The notes: generated by a model from the letters alone, not told the origin. 41,034 nt of DNA from a virus (IMGVR_UViG_3300031949_000088:1-41034); one strand, 5' to 3'; shown: positions 1 through 41,034, counted from the first letter of the stretch. Program-made: numbers and translations.

Positions 1-127
1 CGGCACCGATACGTTGATCGGGTCGTGGGTCGTGCAGCAAGGCTACGACGGCCTGCTGAACCGCGTTGTGCTCGACTATGAAGGCCAGAGCACCTTCCAG
101 AATTTCTCCGGGAATATCGTTTGGCGG
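1..127. repeat. 127-bp exact terminal direct repeat, left copy (circular assembly overlap)
   Basis: 1-127 is identical to 40908-41034; 127 is a common assembler k-mer; the ORF from 40363 stays in frame across the join. Confidence 0.97.
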
Positions 128-337
128 GTGAAGGTCAATTACCGCTACGCAAAGAATCTCGGCAACGTCCAATACAACTACGGGTCGCTCGAAAACCAGA
201 TGGACACACCTGGATTCGGTGTGCGCCTGGTCAGTGGTCAGACAGTCTCGATCTTTGCGGCCATCCCCAACGGAGCGCCGATCAATGACGGGATTGTGGT
301 CGCTGGAACCTTCGGCTGGACCTACCCGAGACGATGA
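1..337 (+). CDS. 3' part of origin-spanning beta-rich structural protein (starts at TTG 40363; 293 aa in the circle)
   Basis: Frame of track ORF 14..337 is open back through the repeat to 40363; ends VVAGTFGWTYPRR, similar to the termini of the upstream paralogs. Confidence 0.8.
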   Translation, partial: GTDTLIGSWVVQQGYDGLLNRVVLDYEGQSTFQNFSGNIVWRVKVNYRYAKNLGNVQYNYGSLENQMDTPGFGVRLVSGQTVSIFAAIPNGAPINDGIVVAGTFGWTYPRR

Positions 338-347
338 GGTTGAGAAC

Positions 348-746
348 ATGCTTTCGCTAGGTCAGACCATCCCAACAGAACCGGGGCCAGCAGCTCCGGC
401 CGGCACGGCAACGGTGAGCTGCCCGCCAGCCCCCGAGGGCATGTGGGTGAACCCCGCAAACTGCACGCAGTGGCTCGCTCCGGAGCAAGGCGCGAAGGTC
501 GGGAATCTCTGCATGTTTGGAACCGGCATCGCGCCTGGTCGCACGCGCGTCGGCGGCAACGGTGCCAACTCTAAACTTTACTGCGGGTGCTTTTTCGATA
601 GCCCCGTTACCGATTCGGCGGTGTTCTACGGCGGAGCTGCTGCGATCGCATTCTTTGCGCTGGACAAGCCGTACAAGTATTGGGTAGCGGGCGCATTCGC
701 CACGCTAGCCGCGCTGGGCGTACTCTATGGCCGCGCCGATTCTTAA
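348..746 (+). CDS. Cys/Pro-rich tail-anchored membrane protein, putative virion protein
   Basis: ATG 348 after GAGG; MLSLG leader; two hydrophobic segments at the C-terminus. Confidence 0.7.
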   Translation: MLSLGQTIPTEPGPAAPAGTATVSCPPAPEGMWVNPANCTQWLAPEQGAKVGNLCMFGTGIAPGRTRVGGNGANSKLYCGCFFDSPVTDSAVFYGGAAAIAFFALDKPYKYWVAGAFATLAALGVLYGRADS

Positions 747-755
747 GGAGGGCAG

Positions 756-3099: not shown

Positions 3100-3334
3100 A
3101 ACCAGCTCCGGGCCCAGCGGGGCGAGTGTCCACCGTCAAGCCCGCTGCCGTCATGGGTGAGCCGGTCGAGAATTCCAGCGGGGCTTGCCCGAAGTTGTAG
3201 AGCACCACGGTCTGTCCGATCGCGCTGGTCTGCATCACTTCCGGGGTAGCCAGCGTGAAGGTGTCCAGGTCGGTGAACGTCGTAAGCGCGGCCTGTGCCG
3301 TGCCGATGGTCAATATCAAAAGCAGCGTTTTCAT
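3057..3334 (-). pseudogene. secreted protein with PEP-CTERM-family-like N-terminus, truncated
   Basis: Signal peptide MKTLLLILTIGTAQA then ALTTFTDLDTF; start overlaps the recombinase stop (ATGA); after ~3057 the frame is only the antisense of the hydrolase. Confidence 0.5.
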
Positions 3335-3954
3335 TTTTTCTCCGATTGTTGTTTCTGCCTATCGATCGCAAGCCGTACCGTGGCCCGCGATCGGTGAACC
3401 CGTCGCGCGATCTCCGCGACCGGCAAACTCTTCGCCGCCAGCCTGTGTATCTTCGCTTCGCAGCTCAGATCGCGCGGGCGTCCTAGCACCTGGCCCCGAG
3501 CTTTGGCGTTGGCCAGCCCGGACAGCACGCGCTCCCGGATCACCGCGCGTTCGTACTCCGCGAATCCGGCGACGATCGTGTAGAACAACCGCCCTTGCGC
3601 TGTGGTCGTGTCGATGTCTTCGGTGATGCTAATGAATTGCACGCCGTGGGAGCCGAAAAAGTTTAGGGCGTCGATCAGCGAAACCAGCGATCGCGCGAAG
3701 CGATCGTATCGCCACACCATGACGCACTGAAACTTTCCGGCCTTCGCATCGGCCAGCAGCGATCGGTACGCCGTGTCCGGTCGATTCCTTCGCTTGGCTC
3801 TGCCTTCCACGTCGCCGGTCACGCGGTCCACATACTCCCCGGCAATGGTGAAGTTCCGCCGTTTGCAGTAGGCCCGCATTTCGCGGAGCTGGGCAGCGGG
3901 GTTTTGATCGGGCGTCGACACCCTGGCATACAGCGCGACCTTAAACGCCTTCAT
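3331..3954 (-). CDS. small serine recombinase (resolvase/invertase) A
   Basis: YARVSTPDQ catalytic Ser, DRFARS, IDTTTAQGRLF, AEYERAVIRER, GRP hinge and C-terminal HTH; start ATG 3954. Confidence 0.95.
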   Translation of the reverse strand: MKAFKVALYARVSTPDQNPAAQLREMRAYCKRRNFTIAGEYVDRVTGDVEGRAKRRNRPDTAYRSLLADAKAGKFQCVMVWRYDRFARSLVSLIDALNFFGSHGVQFISITEDIDTTTAQGRLFYTIVAGFAEYERAVIRERVLSGLANAKARGQVLGRPRDLSCEAKIHRLAAKSLPVAEIARRVHRSRATVRLAIDRQKQQSEKK

Positions 3955-4205
3955 ACGCGAACCTTGGTCCAGCGGTGCTTGACCAGGCCGCAGTCGGCAC
4001 ACGTGCGAAATTGCTCGATCAGCTTTCCGATGAGTTTGTAGTCGTGATCGGCCCTGCACCCGGTCCACCGTTTTTTGCCGTCGCTGTAGGTCACAGTTTC
4101 GACCGGCTGATTGCCAGCGGCCAAGTGATTGAAGTTGTCACTCCAAAGGGGAACCTCACACCGGATGCGCCACTTATCGAAGCGATGGAAAATCCGGCAG
4201 CTCAC
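3951..4205 (-). CDS. small Cys/His-rich hypothetical protein
   Basis: Start/stop overlaps with both neighbours; CxxC motif. Confidence 0.5.
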   Translation of the reverse strand: MSCRIFHRFDKWRIRCEVPLWSDNFNHLAAGNQPVETVTYSDGKKRWTGCRADHDYKLIGKLIEQFRTCADCGLVKHRWTKVRV

Positions 4206-5063: not shown

Positions 5064-6318
5064 TCATAGGCAGCTTCGTAGCATTATGTCCGAGTCCCAC
5101 GGCGCGGTTAGGCCCGTCGAATCGCTGTAGTAGACCAGACCGCCCGTCGCCCGCATGATTTGTTCGTCAAACTCTTCCGACGCCTGCCACTTACTGATGG
5201 CCCCGGAATTCTGCCGATCCAATATGCTTTTGGTGGCGTCAAGATTTTCAGTGCGCTGCCTCCGCCGTTCCTGCTCACGCTTCCACCGTTTTCTGAGACG
5301 ATCGATCATTCCTAGAAGACTGGCAGAAAACAGTGAAAGAATCAACGACTCTTCGGTACTGGAACGTCCCACAGGAGCGCCGTAAAATAAACTTCCAGCA
5401 ATCCGACCTTCCACCCAATAGACACAAGAGGCACCACCAGCAACCATGTTTCGTGGCGCTCTGGACTGTTCCATCTATCCAGTGCGATTACTAAGTCGAG
5501 GGCAAAGGAGAGGATCGTTCCTATCAGCCGCTCTCTAGAGCGGATCGGCCAAAAGGGGAACATGAAAGCTACGAACACCTGAAGCACGGTCCATCGTGGC
5601 AGGATGGTGTGACAGAATCAACGCTTCTTTAGTACCAGGACGGTCTAGTGGACCTGGTTCTTCCGATCGGCGGCATATAAATCGCGGGCAACTTTCAGCG
5701 TCTCATGCTCCCGAGCATTGCAGTGTTTTTCATATGCCCCCGGACCAGCCAAAGTGTCGATGGTGTTGGCGTCGTTCCAGACCATCATGAAATGATCGAG
5801 TCCAACGGGACGACCGAAAACAAGTGAAGAAAAGTGAGCGGGCAGATTCAGAGTTACAAACGGATCACCAACATAGGCGTCCGCGCGGCGCTTCAATTCT
5901 TGCCCTGAGTAGGCTCCGGTGCCTACAGCTTCGACGATGCCCCCACTAGTGAAAAAGATTGTACCTTGCGGAATGCCGACGCCGGCATGCCGGATCGGTT
6001 CGACACCCGCGTTTACGCACGCCATACAAAGAGGAGTGTTCCTCGACACGGTTTTCCCGCACGGGCATGACCCATTCCAACAGTCTCTCTTGGTCGCATT
6101 CATTGGATGACGAAACACCTGCATGTGCAGGGTTTACCTGGTCCTTGATTCGCACTGCAAGCGCCCTCTCCAACCATATGGAGAATCGAGTCGTGATCGC
6201 AGATGCAAACTTTCCGATAGTGCGGATGAAGACGCCAAGTCTTTACCCTTTGATCGGTCTGGTCGGCTATGACGATCTCACCATCTGCCGAGAACGGAAG
6301 CTGTTCTGTCTGGATCAT
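5064..6318 (-). other. cluster of small overlapping hypothetical ORFs (5064-5474, 5342-5587, 5645-6124, 6100-6318)
   Basis: Same-strand ORFs between the two recombinases; no recognised domains; some may be fragments. Confidence 0.4.
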
Positions 6319-6536: not shown

Positions 6537-6737
6537 GTGAAAGACAACTACAAGTTAGTTGGCGCTGCGGCATTGGCTGGTGTGCTGTTCGCGCCCGGAT
6601 GGTGGAAACTGTTAGCGTTGGTCGGTGGTGGGTATGCGACGATTTGGAGCATGACGAGTAGCAAGGCCCTCGATGTGGAGAAGTCGATCCAGTCAGGCAA
6701 GGCAGTTTGCAGAATCAGCGGCGGCGGCGTACTTTAA
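6537..6737 (+). CDS. small membrane protein
   Basis: Hydrophobic hairpin LVGAAALAGVLFAPGWWKLLALVGGG; converges on recombinase B. Confidence 0.5.
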   Translation: MKDNYKLVGAAALAGVLFAPGWWKLLALVGGGYATIWSMTSSKALDVEKSIQSGKAVCRISGGGVL

Positions 6738-7360
6738 GGCTTGGTTCGCACCGGGGGACAGTAAAGATTTGCCCTGAGCAACACCAGCCGAACGCCAGCA
6801 CGGGAGCGGCCCGTAGCCCTGGAAATTTGCGAAAGGCTGGCCTTGGCCTGGTGCATCTCGATCACTTTCGCCTCATCGGGAATGTGTTTGCGCCCGAGAT
6901 GTACGCCCTTGGCCCTGGCGTTTGCGATCCCAGCGTTGACGCGCTCGACGATCATCTCGCGCTCGAATTCCGCGAAGGCTCCCACGACGTGGAAGAAAAG
7001 TCGCCCCATCGCAGTCGTGGTATCCACGTCCTGAGTCGCCGAAATAAAATCGATGCCCTGGTCTTTGAATCCCTGGAGGGCATCGATCAGAGCGGTTAGG
7101 GATCGGGCAAAGCGGTCGAACTTCCAAACGATCACGCAATCGAACTTCCCCTTACGGGCGTCCGCCATGAGTAGTTCGTAGGCGGGGGCCTTGGTCTGAT
7201 TCCGCCGTCTCTTTTCGACGTTGCCAGTCACGGTGTCGATATATTCCCCGACGATGGTGAAGCCGCGCCGCGCCGCGAATTCCTTCAGGGCAAGGACTTG
7301 CATTTCTGGGTTTTGATCGAGCGTCGAGACGCGGGCGTAGAGTGCAACGCGGCGGCTCAC
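6734..7360 (-). CDS. small serine recombinase (resolvase/invertase) B
   Basis: YARVSTLDQ, DRFARS, VDTTTAMGRLF, AEFEREMIVER, C-terminal HTH; clear paralog of 3331-3954. Confidence 0.95.
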   Translation of the reverse strand: MSRRVALYARVSTLDQNPEMQVLALKEFAARRGFTIVGEYIDTVTGNVEKRRRNQTKAPAYELLMADARKGKFDCVIVWKFDRFARSLTALIDALQGFKDQGIDFISATQDVDTTTAMGRLFFHVVGAFAEFEREMIVERVNAGIANARAKGVHLGRKHIPDEAKVIEMHQAKASLSQISRATGRSRAGVRLVLLRANLYCPPVRTKP

Positions 7361-9550: not shown

Positions 9551-10090
9551 ATGATCCAAGAGACTAACATCTATGGCGATCAGTTCGGCTTCCAGCAGCG
9601 CCACTCAGTCGGCAGAATTCTGAACGTGGGCTGCAACACGGACGGCGGAAACCTTGCCAGCATGGGAGCCGTCAACGTAGACCTAGGGACGCTGGACAAT
9701 CTTGGCCAGGTCATGCCGGTGCGGGTGATCGCGGACGCGCGGGCGCTTCCCTTCGGCCCCCACTTCGATACCGTTGTACTGGGAGAGATTCTGGAACACA
9801 TGGAACACGACGCAGCGGTTTTGACCTTGCGCCAGGCGCGGGCCGCTCTTCGACCAGGCGGGCGCGTCGTCATCACAATGCCCCATGACATCCGGCGCGA
9901 AAACGATGCCCTTGAAGTTCCCGAACAAGAGTTCTATACCGAGGGCGTGTATGCTTTTCACTATCGCTGCATCCCTTGGGAAGAGTTGGCCGGCTGGTTA
10001 GCGGAAGCGGGCCTACGGCCTCGACTCCGGGCCGCGATTCATTATCCGTGGGGGGAGAAGGGCTCGGGGGCCGTGGCGGTGGTTTTGTGA
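9551..10090 (+). CDS. class I SAM-dependent methyltransferase
   Basis: ILNVGCN motif I, ADARALPF, FDTVVLGEILEH, LRPGGRVVITMP. Confidence 0.85.
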   Translation: MIQETNIYGDQFGFQQRHSVGRILNVGCNTDGGNLASMGAVNVDLGTLDNLGQVMPVRVIADARALPFGPHFDTVVLGEILEHMEHDAAVLTLRQARAALRPGGRVVITMPHDIRRENDALEVPEQEFYTEGVYAFHYRCIPWEELAGWLAEAGLRPRLRAAIHYPWGEKGSGAVAVVL

Positions 10091-10476
10091 CACTGAGCCT
10101 ATGGGCGCTTGTTCTGGCTTTGGCTTCGGACGAAGACGATGAAGACGACGGCTACGCCCCAGCGATCGCGGAAGAGGAGGGCATTGTTTTGGAAAGACTA
10201 CCAGAGGAGGTTTTGACTTTGCAGCCGTTGATGGACTGGCTAAAGGAATTGCCGTTTCGACGGCAGTTGGCGACTTTCGCGGATGGCAACGGGTCGGACG
10301 TGGTGCTGTGTCTCGAATTTGACAGCCGCGATATTCCGTTCATCGTTCGCAAGGGCGTCGGCAACAATCTGTTCACGGCCATGTTGCAGGCGTGCATCCA
10401 TCTGACCAAGCCCGAGCATGAGCTGCACGAACCGTTTGCGCTTCACTCACTGACTCGGGTGGTGAGGGCCGAATGA
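10087..10476 (+). CDS. hypothetical protein with acidic patch
   Basis: GTG start overlapping the upstream stop; DEDDEDD patch. Confidence 0.55.
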   Translation: MTLSLWALVLALASDEDDEDDGYAPAIAEEEGIVLERLPEEVLTLQPLMDWLKELPFRRQLATFADGNGSDVVLCLEFDSRDIPFIVRKGVGNNLFTAMLQACIHLTKPEHELHEPFALHSLTRVVRAE

Positions 10477-10594
10477 GAAAACGGCTCAATTGCGGAACGC
10501 GGAGCCGCAACGAAACCAGAGTGATCGGATCGCCCAAGGTAGGCGTCATTTCCAGGTGCGACGGCTCACCGTCCAATATGGCCATCATTCTTGA

Positions 10595-11157
10595 GGGGCC
10601 GCCCGCCGTGGTTGAGTTATTTGATCCGCCTATCGATATCCCGTTTGTGGTCGAATTTGTGACCGTGACGTTCTGGATCAGGTTCCCATTCCCGGCCCGG
10701 ATATTGATCGCGGTACTAAACCCATCGAAGGTGCAGTTATTGACGTAAAGACCCTGCACCAGCGTGTTGCCAGCCGGTCCGACGGCTTCAGACCTGGTGC
10801 CCGCCGTGTTGGTGAAGGTGAAGTTTTGAACCGTGATGCCGTTGTAGGGCACGGCGTTGTAAGCGATCAGACGGGTGGAATTGGTGGCTGTGGTCCAAGT
10901 GGCCTTGCCGCCGTCGCCTCGCGTGGTGGTGTAGCCAATGAACTGCGTTTGAACTCCAGCGCCCCCGGCTATGGTGCAAGTAGCCGTCACTGTGTAGGTC
11001 CCGGACGCCTTCAGCCAAAGCGTGTTTCCCTGCTGAACCTGGGCGCATGGCAGATTCGGTAATGTGAGCGCCCCGCCGATCGCGAAGGTACCCGCCGTAC
11101 AGCCGACAGTTCCAGCAACGCGGTCTAGCGTCGCAGTGACCACCGCCACGCTCACTA
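10595..11157 (-). pseudogene. internal fragment of a beta-helix spike/adhesin-like protein
   Basis: Thr/Gly/Asn-rich with repeating V/I-x-N strands (ITVQNFTF, LYVNNCTFDG, LIQNVTVTN); no natural start or end; boundaries approximate. Confidence 0.55.
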
Positions 11158-11297
11158 CTTGATAAAACCCAACTGGTAGCCGTCCACGTTCCCTGTCACG
11201 GCAGCTAAGCACAAAGCGTTGTTGGTTGGACCGACTAGCACTGGATTCATGCCGCCTACCCACCAAGATGTGAAGAAACCAACGGTCAAGCCAGCTC

Positions 11298-12533: not shown

Positions 12534-12637
12534 ACCCGAGCTTAGGCCAAAACTCGGAATTATGGAAGGGGCAAAAGGACAGGGGCCGCAACTCTCGCTG
12601 CGACCCCCGGATTCCACTGACCGACAACCTGATTCCG

Positions 12638-28015: not shown

Positions 28016-28016
28016 G

Positions 28017-30139: not shown

Positions 30140-30573
30140 GAATGCCCGTCCAAACCATCCATCGCGGCATGGGCTGGATGCCGTGTATTCCCGCTGCCAT
30201 CAGCGAACTGAATGGTGAGCCGATCGCGCAGTGCAACTCGATCAGCGATCAAACGCCGTGCTACTTCGATGGCCCTCTGGCGAATTCCGGCTACTGCCCT
30301 TCAGGAATGCCGGGGGGACTTGGCACCGTTGATGAGCCGATCCGCGTGGACGTTACCGACTGTGCGCCGGATCTCTGTTTCGACTATTGGTTTCCTTGGG
30401 TCGGGAATCGAACGCAGACACCGCAAGGCCAATCGGTTTACGGCCGGGTGCTCAACGGCTCATGTTACTGCAAGCCGATTTTCGATGTGGCCCCGTGGAA
30501 CAAGCCGATTACGTTCGGACTTATCGGCCTGATTGGGCTGGCGATCGTCATGGGGGGGAAACGTCGCAGATGA
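30136..30573 (+). CDS. Cys-rich tail-anchored protein
   Basis: GTGA overlap; MRMPVQTIHRGMG leader; internal GGLG; TM plus KRRR. Confidence 0.75.
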   Translation: MRMPVQTIHRGMGWMPCIPAAISELNGEPIAQCNSISDQTPCYFDGPLANSGYCPSGMPGGLGTVDEPIRVDVTDCAPDLCFDYWFPWVGNRTQTPQGQSVYGRVLNGSCYCKPIFDVAPWNKPITFGLIGLIGLAIVMGGKRRR

Positions 30574-31025
30574 AAACCCACTATCAAGTTTTGGGAGTAG
30601 CGAACGATGCCCCGCCTGAAGTGGTGAAGGCGGCATACCGGGTGCTCGCTCAGCAGTATCATCCCGACAAAAATCCGGGCAACCAAACCGCCGAAGATTT
30701 GTTCAAGTCGGTGAACGCTGCCTATCAGGTCGTAGGTGATCCGGAGAAGCGCCGCGAGTACGATGTGTTTCTGGCATCGCGGAAACCGCAGGCGGTGCCG
30801 TTCCCGTCGCCGTTCACCGGATTCGACCCCTCCGGCTTTGTGCAGGCCTACCCCGATGCCTATAAGAACGTGGCGGGAGCTGTGGACCTGGCCGCGCACC
30901 AGGCCATGCAGGCCGCTGGCGAGGTTTTCGTTGAGACCATCCTTTCGACCATGCCACCTCACATACGGGAGTTTGCAAAGCAGGCTATGGCGGCTGCTAC
31001 CAAGCAAGCGAGGAAAAAGGCATGA
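30570..31025 (+). CDS. J-domain (DnaJ-like) co-chaperone
   Basis: HYQVLGV...KAAYR.LA.QYHPDKNPG...F..VN.AY.V.GDPEKRREYD with intact HPD. Confidence 0.93.
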   Translation: MKTHYQVLGVANDAPPEVVKAAYRVLAQQYHPDKNPGNQTAEDLFKSVNAAYQVVGDPEKRREYDVFLASRKPQAVPFPSPFTGFDPSGFVQAYPDAYKNVAGAVDLAAHQAMQAAGEVFVETILSTMPPHIREFAKQAMAAATKQARKKA

Positions 31026-31426
31026 GAATTCCCTTGGGAGCACTCGCGCTCTACGAAGGCCAGCCGGGATACGATCCGCTTCACCCGTGGTGGTTGCCCG
31101 GAGCCATGCACACCGATTTCGAGTGCAAGGCGCTGGTACAGCAAGGCAAGCCCGTTGACGATTTGTGTGTGTTCGCGTTCCACCAGGGAACCCCGCCCTA
31201 CGACTACGTGAGGCCGTCGAATGTTCCTTCGGTTGTGCAAGTCGCGATCAACACACCCGGCGATATCTTGGGCGGTGGCGCTGAAACGATATCCCATGCA
31301 GCGGGCAAAGTTGGATCGGGTGTCGGCGACGGTTTAGCAAGCGGGCTTTCTTTGTCAGGAGTGATGGTGTTTGGAGTGATCGCGCTGGTCGGACTGGGAG
31401 CATTGTTCGTTTACGCGAAACGGTAA
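31022..31426 (+). CDS. tail-anchored putative virion protein
   Basis: MRIPLG leader; TM plus KR. Confidence 0.75.
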   Translation: MRIPLGALALYEGQPGYDPLHPWWLPGAMHTDFECKALVQQGKPVDDLCVFAFHQGTPPYDYVRPSNVPSVVQVAINTPGDILGGGAETISHAAGKVGSGVGDGLASGLSLSGVMVFGVIALVGLGALFVYAKR

Positions 31427-31438
31427 GGAGAAAAAATC

Positions 31439-32068
31439 ATGAGACTTCACAGCGCAACTTTGGGTGTGTACGTTCCGGGGATGGGCGATTTCATCGACGC
31501 CGACGATTCCGCGTTTTTGACTTCGCTAGCTCCGAACCTTGGACCGAGCCTTGGGGATTTCGTAGCAGCGGATCGTGAAGCGTTTCTGACCGATCTCTCT
31601 CCGCACCTCGGCGACTTCATTGGTGCCGATCGCTCGGCGTTCCTGACTTCGCTGGCGGCAAACCTCGGGGACACAGTGCCCACAGCACCGCTCTATCCGA
31701 TTCCGCAGAATTCAGTGCTCACCGCTTATGGTCTCGCGGGTCTAGCAGCTCACGACGATTGCGGTTGCGGCTGTGCGGGAACGGGTGGATGCGGGGGCGG
31801 GCTGTCGGGCATCAGCGATATGATGTCCAGCGTCACGACGTGGGCCGAAGGGCAGTTTGCCAAGATCAAGGCCGGGGACATGGCCACGATCGCGATATGG
31901 GCCGGGGGCGGCCTGCTAGCGGCCTATTTCCTTTTTGGCTTCCGATTCGGCGGCTACAGTTCAGCCCGCAAGGAAGCAGCAGCGGATTATCGGGCGAAGC
32001 TCGCAAAGCTCCGCGCCGAATATCCCACAACCGCCGGTCGGGCACGGAGGGCAGCGTCCGCGTTCTAG
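31439..32068 (+). CDS. membrane protein with tandem GDFxxADxxAFLTxL repeats
   Basis: AAGGAG SD; VYVPGMG leader; three repeats at 31484-31666; CGCGC; TM plus basic helix. Confidence 0.85.
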   Translation: MRLHSATLGVYVPGMGDFIDADDSAFLTSLAPNLGPSLGDFVAADREAFLTDLSPHLGDFIGADRSAFLTSLAANLGDTVPTAPLYPIPQNSVLTAYGLAGLAAHDDCGCGCAGTGGCGGGLSGISDMMSSVTTWAEGQFAKIKAGDMATIAIWAGGGLLAAYFLFGFRFGGYSSARKEAAADYRAKLAKLRAEYPTTAGRARRAASAF

Positions 32069-32070: not shown

Positions 32071-33816
32071 ATGCCCGCCACTCAACAAAATCCGGTGATC
32101 TGGCCCCAGCGCTTCGATAGCGAAGCGCAAGCCCGCAGAGCGTACCGAGCTGCCGGGGCAAAGGAGCCCGCGCGTTTCGTCCCAGCGGGCAAATCCACGC
32201 TCATCGTACAGGGCGCTGTGTCGCAGGCCATGGCGTCGAAATTGGTTTCGGGTCTTACGGGATTGAGGCCGCGCGGGGAGAATCCCGTAGGACCGCGCGA
32301 AGCGGGACGGCAAGCCGTCGCCACGTCGGAGCTGAGGCCGTCGCCCGCGCTTGCAACGAAGTGGTTCAGCAATTGGAAGAGCCAAACGCCAGGCGCGACG
32401 TTCGGCGATCGCAAAGCGTTCATGGCTGGAATCACGGAGGCCTCCGCGTCGGCTGCCCGAAAGCGCGTCGATGAAATGCTGACCGCTGGTGGCTTGCGAA
32501 AAAACGGCAAGCGTAAAAATGCGTTGATCGAAACTCACCATCGCGGGGAAGAGAAAAAGTTTTATTACACGCACGGCGGAAAAACCTTCGGGCCCTACAA
32601 GACATACGCGGAGCGAGAGACAGCCCGGAAGCTCGCCATGGGACTACGGCAGAGTGCCGCCGAAAAGTTCATGGCCAAGTATCGATTCAAGAATCCTGGT
32701 CACAACAAACCCAAGCACCCGAAACTCGAAAAAGATAATGACCAGGGCGATGCGCTGAAAACTCGGTTGAAGGAGTTGAAGCCTGGAGCATTCGTCAAAG
32801 TGATAGCCAGCGGGGAGCGGTTCTGGGTACACGTCACGAAAGTTTCGGGATCCACAGTCACCGGAGCTGTGGACAACGATCTCGTAAATACCGACATCCA
32901 CGGTCTGCGATTGCAGGACTTCATAGAGTTTTCCAAGGATAAGATTTTCGCGTTGGGCTCCTCAAATCCCGCCAAGAACGGCGTTCCCGCCGGTCGCAAC
33001 GCCAAAAAAGGCGGTTCCGGCCGATTGCCGGAAATGACGGTGACGCACGGAAGCAAGCGTGCCGACATTTTCACCGAAGGCAAAAAGTTCGCCGTCGCGA
33101 TCGCGGGCGAAGCTCGCCAGGTGTTCGATTCGATCAAGGCCGCTGTCAGCTACGCGCGTCTGCGATTGCATGAAGTCGCTAACCAGCCGGCCAAACTCAC
33201 AGCGAACTCCAAAGCCGTCGCGAAGCTGCTGAAGAAAGCGAATCCCGGGGGACGCCGCGGCAACCCGGAAAACAGCGCCGTCGAGATGTACGAAATGTTC
33301 CACGGCCTGCCGTCGACGCAGTTTGTCGAGTACCGCGAAAAGTTCCACGTCCACGAATTCATGTGGGCAGCCGGGACTCTGGTTTCGATGGTCGTTACCG
33401 GCCCGCGCGGTGGTCAGATCACGCTCAGCAGCCCCGATCCCGACAAAGTGGATTTCTCGCAAGTCGTGATGGTGTGCTTCAGCGAAGACGGAAAGCAGAT
33501 TTACTTCCGGGGCGGGGAACAAGATTTGCCGCTTGATGGAATCGTGGAAGCGTTCGCGCTGAACGATGACGACGTGCGAGACAACATGGAGGTGGGCCGG
33601 ATCAAGCGCCTGACCTACCGCACGTTCAAAAACTTTGAAGAGAACGGCCAAGTGCCGATCGATTTTTACCACAATCACGGGAAGGAAGATGCTGAGGGCG
33701 TGTTACCGCTGCTGTGCTACAAACCGCTCGACCCCAGCATGTTCGTTGTAGGAGGCCGCTACAAGATCGCGCCAAAAGATCGCGTTCTGAAGGCGAGTCC
33801 CGGAGTTGTAGGCTGA
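32071..33816 (+). CDS. large basic modular core-like protein punctuated by Asn-Pro motifs
   Basis: Start ATG 32071; QNP, ENP, KNP, SNP, ANP and GNP separate modules; a DUF2314-like segment (ERFWV.V...GAVDND). Confidence 0.8.
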   Translation: MPATQQNPVIWPQRFDSEAQARRAYRAAGAKEPARFVPAGKSTLIVQGAVSQAMASKLVSGLTGLRPRGENPVGPREAGRQAVATSELRPSPALATKWFSNWKSQTPGATFGDRKAFMAGITEASASAARKRVDEMLTAGGLRKNGKRKNALIETHHRGEEKKFYYTHGGKTFGPYKTYAERETARKLAMGLRQSAAEKFMAKYRFKNPGHNKPKHPKLEKDNDQGDALKTRLKELKPGAFVKVIASGERFWVHVTKVSGSTVTGAVDNDLVNTDIHGLRLQDFIEFSKDKIFALGSSNPAKNGVPAGRNAKKGGSGRLPEMTVTHGSKRADIFTEGKKFAVAIAGEARQVFDSIKAAVSYARLRLHEVANQPAKLTANSKAVAKLLKKANPGGRRGNPENSAVEMYEMFHGLPSTQFVEYREKFHVHEFMWAAGTLVSMVVTGPRGGQITLSSPDPDKVDFSQVVMVCFSEDGKQIYFRGGEQDLPLDGIVEAFALNDDDVRDNMEVGRIKRLTYRTFKNFEENGQVPIDFYHNHGKEDAEGVLPLLCYKPLDPSMFVVGGRYKIAPKDRVLKASPGVVG

Positions 33817-35003
33817 TGACTATGACACCAAAACCGCAGTTCACGTTTCTATCGATGCCGACTTTTGAGCATTGGGATTGGCTGAATCCCGACGCCAAAG
33901 GAATCGGAGGCTCGGAGACCTCCCATATCCAGATGGCCCAGCGCCTCAAAAAGCGCGGCTGTGATGTTCGCAGTTACGGCCCGACGCCCTACACCGGTCC
34001 AATGACCGATGAGACGGGGCTCGAATGGCGCTGGTGGGACAAGGCGTTCGACGCCGAAGACGAAGGGCAGGCGCTCGATCGCGCAGGCGTGTGGGTGGTT
34101 TACCGCGATCCGCAAGCCGTGGACTTCGTGCCGCAAGGCTTCCCCATTTGGATGATTTGCCAGGACGTGGACTACGACACCTGGACCCCGGAGAGAATTG
34201 CCCGCTGCACGCGCATAGTCGCGCTGTGCGAAGAGCAAAAGCGATTCCTGGAGTATCATCACCCCGAGATGTGCGGGCGCGTGTGCGTCAGCTCTAACGG
34301 CGTGCGGCCTGGTCTCATTGAGCAGATGCGGCGGCTCGATCTCCCTCGCAATCCCAAGCGTCTGATTTATCCGTCGAGTCCCGATCGCGGCCTCATGAAC
34401 CTAGTGCCGATTTTCGAACGGGCGCGGGAAATCGATCATGAGCTGGAGCTGCACGTTTACTACGGCTTTGACAACATCGAAAAAGTTGTGGAGCGCGAAG
34501 CCGCCCTGCCGGGAAACATGGGCCTGGTCGCAAAGCAAACCCAGCGTATCCGCGATGCCATCAATAAGCCGGGTATCGTAGTCCATGGCCGAACGGGCCA
34601 GAAGGATCTCGCGCGAGAGTGGGCCCAGTCCGGTATCTGGTGTCATCCCTCGAATTTCCAGGAAACGTCCTGCATCACTTGCATGGACGCGCAAGCCTTC
34701 GGAGCCATCCCCATCACGAACCCGATTTGGGCGGTGGGTGAGAACGTAGAGCACGGCGTATTCATTGAAGGCAACGCGGCAAACTATGTTGTGCGCGGCC
34801 TCTATGCCCTGGAGCTGGTGCGGCTCGCAAGCGATCCGATCCGGCAGCAGGAAATCCGCAGAGTCATGATGCCGTGGGCTCGGGACCGATTCACTTGGGA
34901 AACTTTCACGGATCAGTGGATGTCTTGGGCAGTAAATGACACGACGTCGACCAGCGCCGGAACCGGCGTGGCTTCCAGGTCAGAACTCGCGGGGGTGCGC
35001 TAA
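33816..35003 (+). CDS. GT-B fold (GT4-like) glycosyltransferase
   Basis: GIGGSET, SSPDRGL, ETSCITCMDAQAFGAIPI; TGATG overlap. Confidence 0.88.
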   Translation: MTMTPKPQFTFLSMPTFEHWDWLNPDAKGIGGSETSHIQMAQRLKKRGCDVRSYGPTPYTGPMTDETGLEWRWWDKAFDAEDEGQALDRAGVWVVYRDPQAVDFVPQGFPIWMICQDVDYDTWTPERIARCTRIVALCEEQKRFLEYHHPEMCGRVCVSSNGVRPGLIEQMRRLDLPRNPKRLIYPSSPDRGLMNLVPIFERAREIDHELELHVYYGFDNIEKVVEREAALPGNMGLVAKQTQRIRDAINKPGIVVHGRTGQKDLAREWAQSGIWCHPSNFQETSCITCMDAQAFGAIPITNPIWAVGENVEHGVFIEGNAANYVVRGLYALELVRLASDPIRQQEIRRVMMPWARDRFTWETFTDQWMSWAVNDTTSTSAGTGVASRSELAGVR

Positions 35004-35696
35004 ATGGAAACCTTGCAACGCACCAAAGTAATCGGCTCGATCGCGTACATGGGCGGCATTATGTCCGTTCCCGAACCGTTCGCCTGGTCGTGGTCGCAGA
35101 TGGTGGAATTCAATCACTCCGCGCTGTGCGAAAACGGGGAACGGATCCACTACGATCGCTCACGGCTCAGCCTTCACGACTACGCGCGGAACGAACTCGT
35201 AGGGCGGATGCTCGGCGACTTCCTTTTGATGCTCGATACCGACATGCAGTTCGAACCGGATTTCGCGGCCCGCCTGGTCCACCAGATGTATGCCCACGAT
35301 CTCGACGTGGTGACTGGCCTCTATCAGTTCAAGGGCGGTGCTCATGCGCCTGTGTTGTGGCATGACAACGTGGAAGGCGACCGGCTGGAAATCATCGGCA
35401 AATGGGATGAGACCGTGGACCTGTTCCCGATCGGGAGCGCGGGCGCGGGCTGCCTGCTGCTCCGGAGACGGGCGCTTGAGCGCATCCGGCTTGAGTTGAA
35501 AGTAAATCCCTTCAGCCGCATCGACGGCAAGGGTGAAGATCATAGTTTCTTCGAACGATTGAAGAAACTCGGAATTCCGGCGTATTGCGCCTGGAAAGTG
35601 CAGGCTGGGCACCTCGACTACAAGCCGATCGGAATGGCGGATCGAAGCGAAGCCATGTTGATCGGCGAGTACGAGGTAGAAAGTTTGCGGAGTTAG
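35004..35696 (+). CDS. GT-A fold (GT2-like) glycosyltransferase
   Basis: ARN, LMLDTD (DxD), GAGCLLLRR, GEDHSF, GH. Confidence 0.88.
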   Translation: METLQRTKVIGSIAYMGGIMSVPEPFAWSWSQMVEFNHSALCENGERIHYDRSRLSLHDYARNELVGRMLGDFLLMLDTDMQFEPDFAARLVHQMYAHDLDVVTGLYQFKGGAHAPVLWHDNVEGDRLEIIGKWDETVDLFPIGSAGAGCLLLRRRALERIRLELKVNPFSRIDGKGEDHSFFERLKKLGIPAYCAWKVQAGHLDYKPIGMADRSEAMLIGEYEVESLRS

Positions 35697-35731: not shown

Positions 35732-36238
35732 ATGACAAAACGAAACATCGCTCTCGGTTTTCTGGCGGTTCTGGCCCTGGTCGTAGCCGCCTTGGTGGTC
35801 ACTGATTGGAAGCAGCTTCCATTGGTGGTCGGAGTCATCGGCGCTGCCGGTACTGCACTATACGCGCTCTTCGCTCAGCAAGGCGAACGCGGCGCGGTCA
35901 CGGTGACATACCGCAACGTCGGCAGCGGCACTACGCCCCCCACGGCGATCGCAGCGCGGCGCGTCAATAGCGTCGTGGCAACCATCGCCGCATCGGCGGA
36001 CGCGGACGCTGCGGCTATCGTGACTCACAACATGAATTTGTCCGCTGCGGATTTGGCGGCAGGATGGCCTACTGTGCTATTCGAGCCGCTCAGCACGCAG
36101 TTCCAAACGTCTCGCTGGTTTGCGGTTTCGCATGACCCCAATTACGTGGGTCTGGTGAAGGGCAACGCGGCAGGCGGCGGCGCGGCTGGTGAACAGTTGA
36201 AAGTCACCGTAGCCCGTCCGCACACGATTGTCCGCTAG
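35732..36238 (+). CDS. N-anchored beta-rich putative structural protein
   Basis: AAGGAAGG SD; N-terminal hydrophobic segments then an Ala/Val/Thr-rich domain. Confidence 0.75.
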   Translation: MTKRNIALGFLAVLALVVAALVVTDWKQLPLVVGVIGAAGTALYALFAQQGERGAVTVTYRNVGSGTTPPTAIAARRVNSVVATIAASADADAAAIVTHNMNLSAADLAAGWPTVLFEPLSTQFQTSRWFAVSHDPNYVGLVKGNAAGGGAAGEQLKVTVARPHTIVR

Positions 36239-36266: not shown

Positions 36267-37001
36267 ATGTTCCTCGAACGTGTGACCAAAGTAGCGGTGG
36301 GCTCTCGGCAGAATCCGGCTCGACCAAAGAGCCGGAAGAAAGCCAAGGCCCCGAGCAGTAATCCAGCACATCTCTTGTCGCTGGGGTGGATCAACCCGAA
36401 AGTCACGAAAGGAAGCAACATGGCCAAAGCCAAACGGGCCGCCCCAAAAGCGTCCCAGAACCGTAAAGGAAAAAAGAAGGCGTCGAATCCCGGCACGAAA
36501 ATTGTCGTGATCGGACCCAAGCAGAACAAAGGCGGGCAGTACACCGTGCGCAAAAAGAGTCGCAACCCGACTTTCTTCGGCAGCAACGTAAGCGGAATGC
36601 AGATGGCTCAGTATGTCGGTGCCGGCCTCGCGGGCCTCACCGTGAACCGTCTCGCGCTGCCCATGCTGCCGGATATGTTCCGTCAGAGCCCCATCGCGGT
36701 CTCTCTGTCCGCTCTGGCCCTGGCCGGTGTGGAATGGTGGCTCGCGAGCATGGCCAGCAAGGAACTCGGCGCTGCCGTTGGTTTCGGTGCGTTGATGGGC
36801 GCCGGGAGCGTCATGCTGAACCAGGTCGTACCCAGTGTCGGTCGCAATGTGCCGATCAGTGGACGCCGCGGAACCGGTGATTTCGTGGGTGCCGATCGCT
36901 CGGCGTTCCTGACTTCGCTGGGCCCGGACATCGCGAGTGTTCCGGGCAACGGCGTAGCGATGCGCAGCGCGTATCCTGCGGCCTATGGGATGGCAGCCTA
37001 G
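36267..37001 (+). CDS. basic NP-motif protein with C-terminal membrane domain
   Basis: AAGGAG SD; QNP, SNP, INP, SNP, RNP; about three hydrophobic helices; one GDFVGADRSAFLTSL copy; possible second start at 36420. Confidence 0.8.
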   Translation: MFLERVTKVAVGSRQNPARPKSRKKAKAPSSNPAHLLSLGWINPKVTKGSNMAKAKRAAPKASQNRKGKKKASNPGTKIVVIGPKQNKGGQYTVRKKSRNPTFFGSNVSGMQMAQYVGAGLAGLTVNRLALPMLPDMFRQSPIAVSLSALALAGVEWWLASMASKELGAAVGFGALMGAGSVMLNQVVPSVGRNVPISGRRGTGDFVGADRSAFLTSLGPDIASVPGNGVAMRSAYPAAYGMAA

Positions 37002-37055: not shown

Positions 37056-37751
37056 ATGGGAATGGGTCAACTCAGCGCTGCGGTTGCAGCGCAGGCCATG
37101 CAGCAAGCCTCGATCAATGCTCAGCAGAGCATGGTTCAGTCCGCGATCGCGGCGGTGACTGCGCAGCAGCAGTTCATCATCAATTCGTTCAAGGGCCAAA
37201 TCTACATCAGCGATCAGCTCGATGTGCAGGACACGCCCATCTACGACACCATCACCTACGCGGCTGGTGGCACGATCAACACGATCAACTCGCGTTTCTT
37301 CACAAACGTGGAAGATGGATCGGGCAAGAGCTACGCGCAAACCAACATGACGCAGAACGGCAAGTTGGACGCGCCGGAAGCCTTCGCGGTTTTCGGCGTG
37401 CGGCTGGGCTTCTCCGAAGACATCCTGCGTTCGGATCTGACGACGCTCTTGAACTCGTGGGCCTACGAGTTTTGGCTGGGGAAGAAAGAATACCAGCGCG
37501 GCAACATTCGGCACTTCAGCTCCGGCTGGGGTATCGCCGGGTGCACCACCAACACGGCGGAGGCGTTCTACACCAACGGCTCTCCTGGCCGTGAGTCCAT
37601 GAACATGCTCGCCGTCAAGCTGGTCATTGCGAACCAGATGTCGTTTTACGGGCAGCTCACCGGCGCGGCCAGCCAAGCGCTGTCCGAAGCGGGAACCGGG
37701 CTCATTCTCGTGAATGAGCTGGTGGGCCTCTACGCTCGCGGCGTGCAATAG
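37056..37751 (+). CDS. candidate major capsid protein (single jelly-roll inferred)
   Basis: Long purine-rich leader with TAAGGAG; strongly C/G-ending codons; beta-strand pattern (IYDT, FF, TNM..NGKL..P..F.V); followed by a GAAA hairpin. Fold not verified. Confidence 0.6.
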   Translation: MGMGQLSAAVAAQAMQQASINAQQSMVQSAIAAVTAQQQFIINSFKGQIYISDQLDVQDTPIYDTITYAAGGTINTINSRFFTNVEDGSGKSYAQTNMTQNGKLDAPEAFAVFGVRLGFSEDILRSDLTTLLNSWAYEFWLGKKEYQRGNIRHFSSGWGIAGCTTNTAEAFYTNGSPGRESMNMLAVKLVIANQMSFYGQLTGAASQALSEAGTGLILVNELVGLYARGVQ

Positions 37752-37822: not shown

Positions 37823-38281
37823 GTGAAGAACACCTACCCGATCAACCAATTCGCTCCGGCCTATCTACAAGGCGTGATGACGCCCCCGCCTGGTCAGGTG
37901 GGATTCGAGGACAAGTATTTCGATTACGTGTTTGATCCGCGCGGGGGCCAGATATTGCTCGGCACCGATCCCATCGAAGAGCTGCAAATCGATCAGGACG
38001 CGGATTTCTATTTCACTGGTTTGCTCATCACCAAAATGACGGCCGATTTCCTGGTGCAGATCACCGATGCCAGTGGCTTCGAACTGACGGACGGTTTTAT
38101 TTCGTCCACCACCTTGTCGGCCTGCCCGTCGTTCCCGACGCAGCTAGGCGTGAAGCATCCGCTTCCAGCGGGTAGCAAGCTCGTCCTACACTTCCGGGAA
38201 ATCTCAGCGACCGACAATGCGCTGCAACTAGTTTTTAAGGGCTACAAACGATATCGCCGCTCAATGGAGAGTGCAGCATGA
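37823..38281 (+). CDS. beta-rich minor capsid/vertex candidate 1
   Basis: IDQDADFYF, QITDASG, H.LPAG, LQLVFKGYKRY. Confidence 0.7.
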   Translation: MKNTYPINQFAPAYLQGVMTPPPGQVGFEDKYFDYVFDPRGGQILLGTDPIEELQIDQDADFYFTGLLITKMTADFLVQITDASGFELTDGFISSTTLSACPSFPTQLGVKHPLPAGSKLVLHFREISATDNALQLVFKGYKRYRRSMESAA

Positions 38282-38670
38282 CACCGATGGAAGAGCTAGG
38301 GTTTTTCGATCGAAACTTTGAATACTTGTTTGTTCCACCGAACGGGCAGCTTACCCCCGGCCAGGTGTTGAACACTCAAATTTCGATCAACGTCGACGCC
38401 GAATTTTGGATCGCGGCTCTGTACCAAACAGGAGACTCCGTTTATGAAGTGATGATTACCGATTCGGACGGCTACCAGTTCAGCAACGTCCCCCGTCAAT
38501 CGGGCGGCATCCCTGGTGTTTCGTCGCCCGAAGTCATCTCCCCGGCTCACCGCATCCCGGCAGGCGGCAGAATCCAGCTCAACATCACGGAGCTGTCGGG
38601 CGCAACCGCGGACATGGGCCTGGTCTTCAAGGGCTGGAAACGATTTCAAAAGCCGGTCCCGCAACAATGA
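38278..38670 (+). CDS. beta-rich minor capsid/vertex candidate 2
   Basis: INVDAEFWI, MITDSDG, HRIPAG, GLVFKGWKRF; paralog of 37823. Confidence 0.7.
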   Translation: MTPMEELGFFDRNFEYLFVPPNGQLTPGQVLNTQISINVDAEFWIAALYQTGDSVYEVMITDSDGYQFSNVPRQSGGIPGVSSPEVISPAHRIPAGGRIQLNITELSGATADMGLVFKGWKRFQKPVPQQ

Positions 38671-39842
38671 AAAACTTTTTGCAGTATCCGTATTCTCCCC
38701 CCGAGGGCTACTACGATCTGCCCTTTACGTGGATCTTTGATGCGGGCGACCTGGTCGATGGTAGCGATGCACTGAACCGGTTCGTGTACATGCAGGGCGG
38801 CTATGGCGATTTCATCCTGCGCCGAATCGTGGGGCTCGATCGCGTGTTGCTCGATTCGCTCGCCACCCCGCCGTTTCAGGGGGGCCGCTATCGCACTTAC
38901 GATCGCTATGGTTCGCCGATGCAGTCAGCGCCTCAGAACATCATTCGGGTTAGCTCTATTCCCGGCGACGTTGGAATTGCTCCGGAGGAAATCTACCCCG
39001 AGCTGGGAAAGATCGCATTCGATCTCTACTCGATCCTAAAGATTTCGGCGCTCACTGCGCAGATCGCGTTCAAGGGTATTCGCCGGATGAAAGGCACGCC
39101 TCCCAAAACCTCCTACCGCCATCAGCCGAAAACCTTCAGTTACATTCAGACCGTCAGTTTGACCGGTGGCGTGGACATGGTGCCTATCCTCATGCGCCAA
39201 CAAATCCGGGACTACGATTTCGAGCTGTTCGATATCCGCCTACTCAAGCAGTCCGGCGGCAGCGCGGGCTCGGGCGGGGAAGCGGTGGCATCGGTTTCTT
39301 TCTTCGCGAATCCGGGCACAGCACCGTTCACGATCGAAATGCTGAGCGGCAGTGGCACTCCGAATTTGGTTCTAAGCGTGATCGTGGTACCTGGAGTATC
39401 GATCACGATTCAAGGAGCCACGGATGGGGCGGGCAGTCCGCTCTCTACGTCGGGCGATATGCTCGCGCTCTTCAATGCAACGCCTGACGCGGTGGCACTC
39501 GCTCAAATGTTTACCGACAATCCCGCTTTCGGCATCGCGGATATTACCCCGCCCGTGGTGGTGCAGGGTTCAGCCTGGGAGCCCATCAATCTCACGGACC
39601 CGCCTTTCTGCAAGCTGTGGATTCGCGACAAAGACCGCATAGCGATCGCCAGTGAGCCGGTGCTCGATATCTACTGCGACGGCGGCCCGGCAAGCGCATA
39701 CGTAGAGGGCTCGATCGTTCCCCCGCTGCTGTATCCGAAAGATCAGCTCTTGCAAATCGACGTTTCGAGCGTGATCGAAACCTTCACGACTCCGGTGGGC
39801 ATCATGATCGAGATGGTGGGGAGGCAGTTGATTCCATGCTAG
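38667..39842 (+). CDS. two-repeat minor capsid/vertex candidate with inserted domain
   Basis: YGDFILRRI...IAFKGIRR and DYDFELFDI...IEMVGRQ repeats; ~110-aa insertion in the second. Confidence 0.7.
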   Translation: MKNFLQYPYSPPEGYYDLPFTWIFDAGDLVDGSDALNRFVYMQGGYGDFILRRIVGLDRVLLDSLATPPFQGGRYRTYDRYGSPMQSAPQNIIRVSSIPGDVGIAPEEIYPELGKIAFDLYSILKISALTAQIAFKGIRRMKGTPPKTSYRHQPKTFSYIQTVSLTGGVDMVPILMRQQIRDYDFELFDIRLLKQSGGSAGSGGEAVASVSFFANPGTAPFTIEMLSGSGTPNLVLSVIVVPGVSITIQGATDGAGSPLSTSGDMLALFNATPDAVALAQMFTDNPAFGIADITPPVVVQGSAWEPINLTDPPFCKLWIRDKDRIAIASEPVLDIYCDGGPASAYVEGSIVPPLLYPKDQLLQIDVSSVIETFTTPVGIMIEMVGRQLIPC

Positions 39843-40366
39843 GCGAATTCCTAACTGAGTCGATCCTGAACAATTACCCGGTGATCGACGGTTTCACGTT
39901 GCGCCGCGACTATCGCTGCAACTATACGTTCCTGTCGCTGGCAGTCGATCAGTACGAGAGGCTGCGACGTGCGCAGAACTTCAAACAAAAGCAGTGGGTC
40001 TTTCCGCGCGATCCGTTCGCGGACCCGGTGCCAGCGTTTGGCAGTTCGGAGAAGGCGCTGCGCGTGGGCATCGGATCGGTCATTTGGGGCTACGGGCTTT
40101 CCGGCATAGTCCAGCCCGGACAGATCAGCGGCTTTCAGATCCGGGACACTTGCACCGATGAACCATTGTTCAGCGAGCCCATGACTCAGCAATTTTCGTT
40201 CTGGCCCGGGAACGTGACTGGTTTCAACGGGCCGATTGGGCTGCCAAGGCTGCTGGTGATCGGCAAGCCGGGGATCATCACAATCGAGCTGATGAACATT
40301 GGCTCAGCTCCCGCCCCGCAACAAATCGTTTTATACGGTGGCCAGCCTGTGGGGGTAGACCATTGA
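39836..40366 (+). CDS. beta-rich minor capsid/vertex candidate
   Basis: FQIRD....PLFSEP, LPRLLVI, ITIELMN, QIVLYGG. Confidence 0.65.
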   Translation: MLGEFLTESILNNYPVIDGFTLRRDYRCNYTFLSLAVDQYERLRRAQNFKQKQWVFPRDPFADPVPAFGSSEKALRVGIGSVIWGYGLSGIVQPGQISGFQIRDTCTDEPLFSEPMTQQFSFWPGNVTGFNGPIGLPRLLVIGKPGIITIELMNIGSAPAPQQIVLYGGQPVGVDH

Positions 40367-41034
40367 GAATTCCATCACTCGCCGATATCGTGCGTATGCC
40401 GTCGCCGTCGCGTCGGCTACCCTCCGCTTGGGGACCTGGTGGCGGCTCGGGGCCAGCTGGCAACGCTTTTTCTGGCGGGGGTCCAGGCGGTAACTACGCC
40501 GGAGGGCCTGGTCCTGGTGAGCCTGGGGGGAACGCCCTACAGCCTGGTGAAACATCAACCGGCCTTGTCATCCCTGCCGTGGCCAGCTCTTCGATGCCCG
40601 TTGCTGGCGATTGGACGCCCGCACAGCTCATCCCGGATTCGTCCCTGCCTGCGGCTCTCCAACGGGCGGGACAGCACGCTAGGACGCTCTACCGCGTCAA
40701 TGACAACGATGTGGCGCTCGTTCGGCAAGCCCGCATGTGGCAGTACATTTCCGAGCACGGCGGCCTGCGAAGCTGCTGCATAGTTCCCGAGCTGGGGCGG
40801 CCCATCTGGAGCAAGCCGCCTTGGATCGTCATGCCGTCCAACGGTCTCGAATTCCGAGAGGTCTTTAGCCAGTCGATCAATAACATTTCGGGGGGGCCGC
40901 CCTTTGACGGCACCGATACGTTGATCGGGTCGTGGGTCGTGCAGCAAGGCTACGACGGCCTGCTGAACCGCGTTGTGCTCGACTATGAAGGCCAGAGCAC
41001 CTTCCAGAATTTCTCCGGGAATATCGTTTGGCGG
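40363..41034 (+). CDS. 5' part of origin-spanning structural protein (MRIPSL..., Gly/Pro-rich N-terminus)
   Basis: TTG start overlapping the TGA of the previous gene; frame open to the window end and on to 337; missing from the ORF track. Confidence 0.8.
   Translation, partial: MRIPSLADIVRMPSPSRRLPSAWGPGGGSGPAGNAFSGGGPGGNYAGGPGPGEPGGNALQPGETSTGLVIPAVASSSMPVAGDWTPAQLIPDSSLPAALQRAGQHARTLYRVNDNDVALVRQARMWQYISEHGGLRSCCIVPELGRPIWSKPPWIVMPSNGLEFREVFSQSINNISGGPPFDGTDTLIGSWVVQQGYDGLLNRVVLDYEGQSTFQNFSGNIVWR
40908..41034. repeat. 127-bp exact terminal direct repeat, right copy
   Basis: Identical to 1-127. Confidence 0.97.

Follow-up and report, generated by a model that had tools for sequence, protein, structure and literature searches.

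A circular soil virus genome with a predicted single jelly-roll coat protein and no detectable packaging ATPase

The viral sequence IMGVR_UViG_3300031949_000088 (positions 1–41034; this whole stretch of 41,034 nt is called the window below) raises the question of how its DNA could be enclosed in a particle when no packaging motor can be recognised in it. The answer that we consider probable is that the window is the genome of a tailless virus of soil Acidobacteriota, with a jelly-roll coat protein and no detectable packaging ATPase, in which a condensed core would be enclosed by a membrane and a shell and proteins would mature by cleavage at Asn-Pro sites. We infer the membrane, the particle and the condensation of the DNA; the cleavage is predicted from motif statistics.

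Completeness of the genome

Positions 1–127 and 40908–41034 match exactly, so that the window closes into a circle of 40,907 bp with this repeat as the assembly overlap, and IMG/VR places the ends in its category of direct terminal repeats. Two Logan contigs from one soil-metagenome run (X1), possibly the source sample, make up the circle; no RNA run was listed as containing the sequence. The first (35,667 nt, depth 20.5) runs from window position 36892 through the join to 31651 with zero differences; the other 5.3 kb form the second (5,292 nt, depth 23.7). The contigs break at a 34-nt exact internal repeat (31626–31659 and 36888–36921), which is part of a 47-nt family and encodes a short motif common to two membrane-associated proteins. 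The circle of 40,907 bp proposed in the initial annotation is thus confirmed by the end repeat and by a contig across the join; circularity is taken from the assembly, and the double-stranded (ds) DNA state is assumed from the DNA metagenome origin. No tRNA was found in the window.

Fourteen genomes with end repeats (41–61 kb) were compared, the window and 13 relatives from IMG/VR. CheckV estimates the completeness of the window at 51%, it is the shortest of the 14, and the Atlas taxa labels are mostly Uroviricota. These points count against our reading and in favour of a circle that is a misassembled or incomplete part of a larger tailed-phage genome, as does the nature of the evidence at the join, which consists of contigs and not raw reads. 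However, the contigs bridge the join at even depth, the 13 other end-repeat genomes have the same gene order and the same gene module (see below), and a fully flanked provirus of the lineage contains no tailed-phage families. Misassembly, which would have overturned the initial annotation, is therefore extremely improbable.

Search for a packaging motor

The module comprises nine protein families, found in 14/14 end-repeat genomes and in the same order where mapped: a 571-aa protein, a Cys enzyme, the family of the open reading frame (ORF) at 26725, a protein with a conserved C-terminal domain (C-domain), a basic protein, the capsid protein candidate and three families of vertex candidates. 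Pfam and PHROGs, run on 106 of the 316 listed ORFs, gave no P-loop, large terminase, portal, HK97 or tail-structure family. The families that could be named were resolvases, methyltransferases, ArdC, an M23 peptidase, DnaJ, two glycosyltransferases, an HNH nuclease and, weakly, a replication initiator; as minor matches, the HNH ORF resembled a small-terminase family along 31 aa, and the M23 domain resembled a tape-measure family. When DUF87, Pox_A32 and FtsK were searched in six frames, the window stayed empty and the control genomes were positive. In window frames of at least 120 aa, the sole [GA]x4GK[ST] motif was a Cys-rich GSCPCGKT in 5648–6133. The absence of a recognisable packaging ATPase or terminase, as initially annotated, is upheld by these searches.

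The motif scan found no credible Walker A in three of the 14 genomes (the window, G825 and G826), and the same scan recovers the ATPases of P23-77, IN93 and the Salisaeta phage SSIP-1. Annotatable P-loops in the remaining end-repeat genomes were helicases, AAA_24, VapE, DnaB and UvrD. Of the 28 Walker-A proteins listed by the scan, 26 went into the Pfam check, without one glycosyltransferase (G002) and one near-duplicate of an ORF in G820. Two further proteins, a long HerA (G005) and a helicase-like protein (G009), were outside the check because each crosses a locus boundary. For 11 of the 26, Pfam named no family.

A minority of relatives does carry a HerA-like ATPase, which speaks against a strictly motorless lineage: HerA/DUF87 ATPases occur in 5/26 IMG/VR records, in 1/14 end-repeat genomes and near the provirus of G609. 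Since these proteins match phrog_2666, as does the packaging ATPase of P23-77, a flat statement that the lineage never has a motor is weakened. A further point against us is that two module proteins, the 571-aa protein and the 26725 product, lack a confident fold. The same jelly-roll virus might then pump its DNA into a preformed membrane-containing procapsid, with an ATPase that is borrowed from host or helper, too divergent to be detected, or HerA-like. In favour of this, an ATPase (gp40) is part of the virion of SSIP-1, a phage that also has the Cys enzyme, and 41–61 kb is two to three times the genome of the archaeal virus SPV1. On the other hand, DUF87 is absent from 13/14 end-repeat genomes, and the HerA-like proteins are mostly long (354–599 aa, with one fragment of 124 aa), lie outside the module and are on the opposite strand in G005, G006 and G010. 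The abundant protamine-like proteins would also suit co-assembly better than the translocation of naked DNA. The C-domain (33256–33813), conserved and next to the basic and capsid genes, was the best candidate for a disguised motor. It does not hide an ATPase, as its confident model (pLDDT, the predicted local distance difference test, of 90) is beta-rich and has no P-loop fold. Its best structural Z was 4.4; the lack of a match at Z 5 or more does not establish a new fold. We consider a pump unlikely.

The capsid protein candidate and its neighbours

The major capsid protein candidate (37056–37751, + strand) is by far the most conserved protein of the genome. Its homologs number 534 (from 1,963 candidates; the top 120 lie at 68–88%, self excluded) and fall into 393 clusters at 50% identity; the lineage is widespread in soil, with genomes up to about 60 kb. 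The model of its 231 aa has an N-terminal helix and one beta-sandwich, a predicted single jelly roll, with a mean pLDDT of 77 and core blocks near 90. The best row of the structural search was chain T of the SPV1 structure 6oj0 (Z 7.3, root-mean-square deviation 3.9, 140 residues aligned), which we take to be VP4. It was followed by HCIV-1 (Z 7.2), PHM (6.9 and 6.8), a phage tail fibre, the STIV turret, HHIV-2 (6.7) and VP17 of P23-77 (6.6). The single jelly-roll capsid protein of the initial annotation is therefore supported by the model, with SPV1 and halopanivirus capsid proteins as its closest matches at Z about 7.

Several results weigh against this assignment. No Z reached 8, and cellular jelly rolls (the two PHM rows) score level with the capsid rows. 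Foldseek of the model against the PDB gave no match at E 0.001, sequence searches with the protein and its profile against solved structures gave no link, and comparison with SSIP-1 gp46 gave no significant sequence match (E 0.36). Searches of PHROGs and GenBank phages with the protein and its profile returned nothing useful, and a complex prediction for two copies of the capsid domain scored 0.00 and was not used. [quoted passage not shown] The modelled jelly-roll fold is well supported. The nearest family is supported only moderately, because the best rows are level with each other at Z below 8 and no PDB entry was matched by Foldseek at E 0.001.

The middling Z shared with cellular folds, the many membrane proteins and the plasmid-type genes (ArdC, resolvases) would also fit a non-icosahedral element, pleomorphic, vesicle-borne or plasmid-like, with the jelly-roll protein as a spike or surface protein. 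Against this, the jelly-roll protein is the most conserved of the genome, as a lattice former should be, icosahedral membrane viruses supply 5 of the 8 best structural rows, and in the icosahedral SSIP-1 the shared enzyme is part of the virion. We regard such an element as very unlikely and a jelly-roll shell as the better explanation.

Downstream of the capsid gene the initial annotation had placed five paralogs. Four of these beta-rich proteins (at 37823, 38278, 38667 and 39836, within 37823–40366, + strand) are mutual paralogs (HHalign probability 100, 99.9 and 90), and by analogy they are likely penton or vertex components. The fifth, a conserved beta-rich protein that crosses the join (40363–41034 and 128–337, + strand), has no link to the four (HHalign probability 0.3), and none of the five is detectably paralogous to the capsid protein (HHalign probability 1.0 or less against the capsid profile). 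A tblastn search of 38667–39842 against phages found nothing.

Among the first 11 large genomes, five have a diverged second copy of the capsid gene outside the module (G002 17918–18811, G004 50383–51582, G007 39209–39541, G010 23587–24384 and the window). The copy in the window is degenerate (22539–22903, + strand), with its C-terminal half in one frame and a leader in another. What we take to be a twin-arginine-like motif is present in this leader and in those of G004, G007 and G010; the copy in G002 has a four-Cys insert.

Structural operon and proposed assembly

The capsid gene is part of a 17.2-kb run of + strand genes that starts at 25196, crosses the join and ends at 1498. A hydrophobic 19-residue window was found in 12 of the 26 listed ORFs of this operon, one of which (in 38667–39842) may be a beta-strand, and several ORFs are rich in Lys and Arg (K/R). 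This agrees with the 17-kb operon of membrane-anchored and basic proteins described earlier. The label histone-like had to be abandoned for the basic proteins: no histone family matched, and they have low-complexity K/R tracts and resemble protamine-like polyproteins instead.

Divergent from the operon lies the gene for the 571-aa protein (23403–25118, − strand, present in 14/14 end-repeat genomes), which has one hydrophobic segment; its Atlas model has a predicted template modelling score (pTM) of 0.25 and gave no match in a structural search. The operon opens with the Cys enzyme (25196–25891), followed by two small K/R-rich ORFs (26202–26513 and 26516–26722) that by their composition are likely DNA-condensing. 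Next comes a run of membrane-anchored ORFs (26725–32068; the 26725 family is found in 14/14 genomes) with a DnaJ-domain protein inside it (30570–31025). The basic modular polyprotein (32071–33816) has six Asn-Pro sites and ends in the conserved, beta-rich C-domain of 186 aa. Two glycosyltransferases, GT4-like and GT2 by Pfam and PHROGs (33816–35696), and a conserved membrane protein (35732–36238) precede a protamine-like protein (36267–37001), in which a hydrophobic region comes after five Asn-Pro sites. All of these operon genes are on the + strand.

With these parts, assembly may be pictured as follows. The circular dsDNA would replicate with the initiator-like protein (a weak match) and host enzymes. 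The proteins computed to be K/R-rich would bind the DNA, and the product of 36267–37001, with its basic tracts and hydrophobic region, likely ties the core to a membrane rich in the operon's anchored proteins. By analogy with VP4 and VP10 of SPV1, hexamers of the coat protein would serve as capsomers, with the four beta-rich paralogs forming the vertices. Assembly around the core would need no ATP-driven pump. The anchored enzyme would cut after Asn in basic-x-Asn-Pro, which would free short DNA-binding peptides and the C-domain and, in some relatives, remove a basic pro-region from the coat protein.

The Cys enzyme and the Asn-Pro sites

The enzyme at 25196–25891 is transglutaminase/papain-like, with a Cys-His-Asp triad (C129-H164-D179) that is invariant in 25/25 aligned rows and a C-terminal membrane anchor. 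It is homologous to SSIP-1 gp34 (E 1.1e-11), which is annotated as structural; proviral members of the family are assigned to Transglut_core by Pfam, and tblastn against phages found nothing. From these sequence features it is likely a maturation protease, which the initial annotation had missed.

Its putative targets are the Asn-Pro sites. In the two basic families Asn-Pro occurs 71 times versus 11.1 in shuffled sequences and 89 versus 15.1, about six times chance; nine further genomes gave 50 versus 7.5 and 65 versus 8.5. The sites lie between swappable modules and are kept in distant proviruses. The residue ahead of the C-domain is Asn in 22/22 rows (18 Asn-Pro, 3 Asn-Ser and 1 Asn-Thr). 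In a distant subgroup of capsid proteins (n = 40), 26 of the 28 members with a long N-terminus carry Asn-Pro at a distance of exactly 16 residues ahead of a conserved Asp. By the starts of the gene caller, 5 of 6 proteins that begin at that position start with Met-Pro; another six have their starts at other positions. Where Pro comes second, the initiator Met is normally taken off. Asn-Pro is hence predicted to be the cleavage site, because removal of Met and cleavage would yield the same mature N-terminus, and the pattern points to cleavage after a basic pro-region. The pro-region subgroup shares the module with the Cys enzyme in two long metagenome loci (L214 and L217). A metagenome scan for this subgroup gave 20 true loci of 28, and the IMG/VR scans none. 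The coat protein of the window itself has no Asn-Pro pro-region, which counts against our reading.

Asn-Pro commonly caps helices, and it resembles DNA-binding turns of the SPKK type. With the virion plan otherwise right, it could serve as a turn in the structure, bind DNA, act as a docking signal or be the place where a true transglutaminase cross-links, which the Pfam label of the enzyme would allow. The SPKK and helix-cap readings were rejected, as Ser-Pro, Thr-Pro and Asp-Pro show no excess in the basic families. In addition, Met takes the exact place of Asn in 5/6 capsid proteins that lack the pro-region. Uncut Asn-Pro sites are accordingly judged quite unlikely, and cleavage is preferred.

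In the provirus of G315, an Asn-Pro-punctuated protein (L157:3828–5345) strings together HNH and PBECR1 nuclease-like modules; its sequence suggests cargo domains delivered in the core.

Host and integrated relatives

Matches to the capsid profile were found in 11 of 401 genomes from the order of a Bryobacterales metagenome-assembled genome (MAG), or 10 without the unpublished G238, which bears on this count alone. Elsewhere they occurred in 5/401 genomes of the same phylum, 1/401 of Pseudomonadota and 0/401 of Verrucomicrobiota. The sole match in Pseudomonadota (G1218 C85 6968–7546, E 8e-23) may be a binned viral contig. A GTDB pattern scan with the close capsid alignment found none.

The provirus of G315, of about 20 kb, carries an integrase and the module, has no Walker A and holds no tailed-phage families; it is flanked by an outer-membrane barrel/BON gene pair on one side and oxidoreductases on the other. 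A DUF2961 gene (L157:7319–8608) lies in it directly past the vertex candidates; in the available text of PMC8812541, this cellular family is proposed as the origin of double-jelly-roll capsids. The provirus of G163 follows a tRNA-Gly gene in a contig of 4.86 Mb, that of G324 sits in a 358-kb contig with host genes after it, and the loci of G682 and G691 adjoin tRNA-Arg genes. Around the G163 provirus (L151:8451–12955, L152:9224–13714) there are two integrases and two primase/DUF927-like genes, and it adjoins a tailed prophage across the contig end, so that nested elements occupy one site.

The integrated relatives in Bryobacterales and other Acidobacteriota bear out the claim of a bacterial virus. 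As related proviruses sit in this phylum, the host of the window is likely a member of Acidobacteriota too. The M23 peptidase (17854–18435, + strand; Pfam), which has a C-terminal membrane anchor, is likely a cell-wall hydrolase by its sequence, implying a bacterial host. The window has recombinases of the resolvase type and no tyrosine integrase. The best genome matches of its serine recombinase include Acidobacteriota and Bryobacterales MAGs (56%); it also matches MAG contigs of Azospirillaceae and Verrucomicrobiota (53–58%), which counts against this host. Capsid matches were absent from all five genomes in which the recombinase had its best Acidobacteriota matches. The two inverted recombinases that lie 55 kb apart in G016 can therefore not be claimed as flanks of such a provirus.

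In four genomes of the Bryobacterales order (G079, G177, G342 and G419) a compact module of Cys enzyme, short C-domain relative and capsid homolog is kept at 50–88%. In G079 (C9 about 14000–24700, L163) it lies between fliM and a sigma-54 regulator, has no integrase and contains an acidic repeat protein in place of the basic protein. Modules of this type are possibly domesticated.

The available text of PMC11924767 describes Bryobacterales proviruses and viral operational taxonomic units of 44–59 kb that are classed as Caudoviricetes; these could include members of the lineage.

Comparison with known viruses

A motorless design of membrane and shell was previously described from an archaeal virus, SPV1 of the Portogloboviridae (PMC8459092); here it is likely bacterial. 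The window and SPV1 both have a circular dsDNA genome, one main single-jelly-roll capsid protein (VP4-like here by predicted fold, with a middling match), glycosyltransferase and methyltransferase genes and, as far as the available text of PMC8812541 covers SPV1, no packaging ATPase; a membrane and a nucleoprotein core would be shared as well. This likeness is one of predicted fold and gene content. The differences are in genome size (about 20 kbp versus 40.9 kb here and 41–61 kb in the relatives, with one provirus of about 20 kb) and in host (Saccharolobus, Sulfolobales, versus Acidobacteriota). Moreover, the soil lineage adds an initiator-like protein, a cell-wall peptidase, the Cys enzyme and the Asn-Pro polyproteins, and some of its members integrate.

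By gene content the nearest isolate is probably SSIP-1, which does not appear in the initial annotation. It shares the Cys-His-Asp enzyme (gp34) and has a few Glu/Gln-Asn-Pro sites in gp41, gp43 and gp44, just upstream of its capsid genes. The viral model with the best TM match to the capsid protein is I1ZBH9, which at 211 aa has the same length as SSIP-1 gp46 and is presumably that protein. Apart from the enzyme, neither the capsid protein nor any other module family had a significant sequence match in SSIP-1. In contrast to the window, SSIP-1 has a virion P-loop ATPase (gp40, L052:24775–25737), AAA_25/RecA-like rather than FtsK/HerA, which is reported to be its packaging ATPase, and a hypersaline host. 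It also has two capsid types, according to the available part of PMC6356626. The available part of PMC6260650 lists it as a bacterial, membrane-containing virus with a circular genome of 43.8 kb, T = 49 and an entry 'single jelly roll?'.

Viruses of the Halopanivirales/Singelaviria (P23-77, IN93, SH1, HCIV-1, HHIV-2) resemble the window in the single-jelly-roll fold among the top rows and, presumably, in an internal membrane. They differ in having an FtsK/HerA ATPase in the structural module and two major capsid proteins (available text of PMC8328091). The module of the window holds one capsid gene, with the downstream beta-rich proteins unlinked to it by profile and the degenerate copy elsewhere, and ten module profiles had no match in P23-77 and IN93.

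Caudoviricetes would be recognised by HK97 capsid, portal and large terminase, none of which was present among the 106 ORFs, and membership in Bamfordvirae (PRD1, PM2, Odin, FLiP) does not fit a coat protein of 231 aa with one beta-sandwich. The adenain-type proteases of adenovirus and polintons are papain-like and recognise a short motif to cut basic core proteins and precursors associated with the capsid (available text of PMC6260650). The enzyme here would act in a similar way, but it belongs to a transglutaminase-like subfamily with another motif, and theirs are double-jelly-roll viruses of eukaryotes. The Odin group and FLiP are likewise prokaryotic jelly-roll viruses without a packaging ATPase, but have a double jelly roll and genomes of 7–11 kb, single-stranded in FLiP (all from the available text of PMC5894146). 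Among related preprints, available in part (10.1101/2025.08.03.668216, 10.64898/2026.04.06.716669, 10.1101/2025.02.15.638363 and 10.1101/2024.06.25.600602), and the further literature, with little coverage of subscription papers, no description of the group was found.

Tentatively, and with rather more doubt than confidence, we propose that the lineage is a large living bacterial branch of the motorless stage with a single capsid gene that has been proposed as ancestral to Singelaviria, with adenovirus-like maturation in which a protease of transglutaminase fold would cut the DNA-condensing polyproteins and the capsid pro-regions at Asn-Pro. SSIP-1 would be part of this radiation, and the HerA-like genes, with their sporadic occurrence, would mark a route of motor acquisition. 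Should the motorless reading be true, motor-free encapsidation would extend well beyond 20 kb, and the proviruses in Acidobacteriota make the design open to experiment. A maturation protease directed at Asn-Pro, if true, would add a step that is new to jelly-roll viruses of prokaryotes, and its specificity might be useful. By their Atlas labels, genomes of the lineage are probably filed as tailed phages at present, so soil virome counts may be skewed.

Other genes of the window

The replication-initiator-like protein (21136–22527, + strand) is a weak match to phrog_678 (E 1.1e-6). Two serine recombinases of the resolvase/invertase type (3331–4068 and 6734–7360) and an ArdC-type anti-restriction protein (12905–13909; Pfam and PHROGs) are on the − strand. 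Accessory genes encode a Dam-like methyltransferase (1627–2988), an S-adenosylmethionine (SAM) methyltransferase (9551–10090) and an HNH nuclease (15243–15698). The SAM methyltransferase gene lies within the structural operon in relatives and has moved elsewhere in the window. Two beta-rich ORFs on the reverse strand (10373–12761) may encode receptor-binding proteins.

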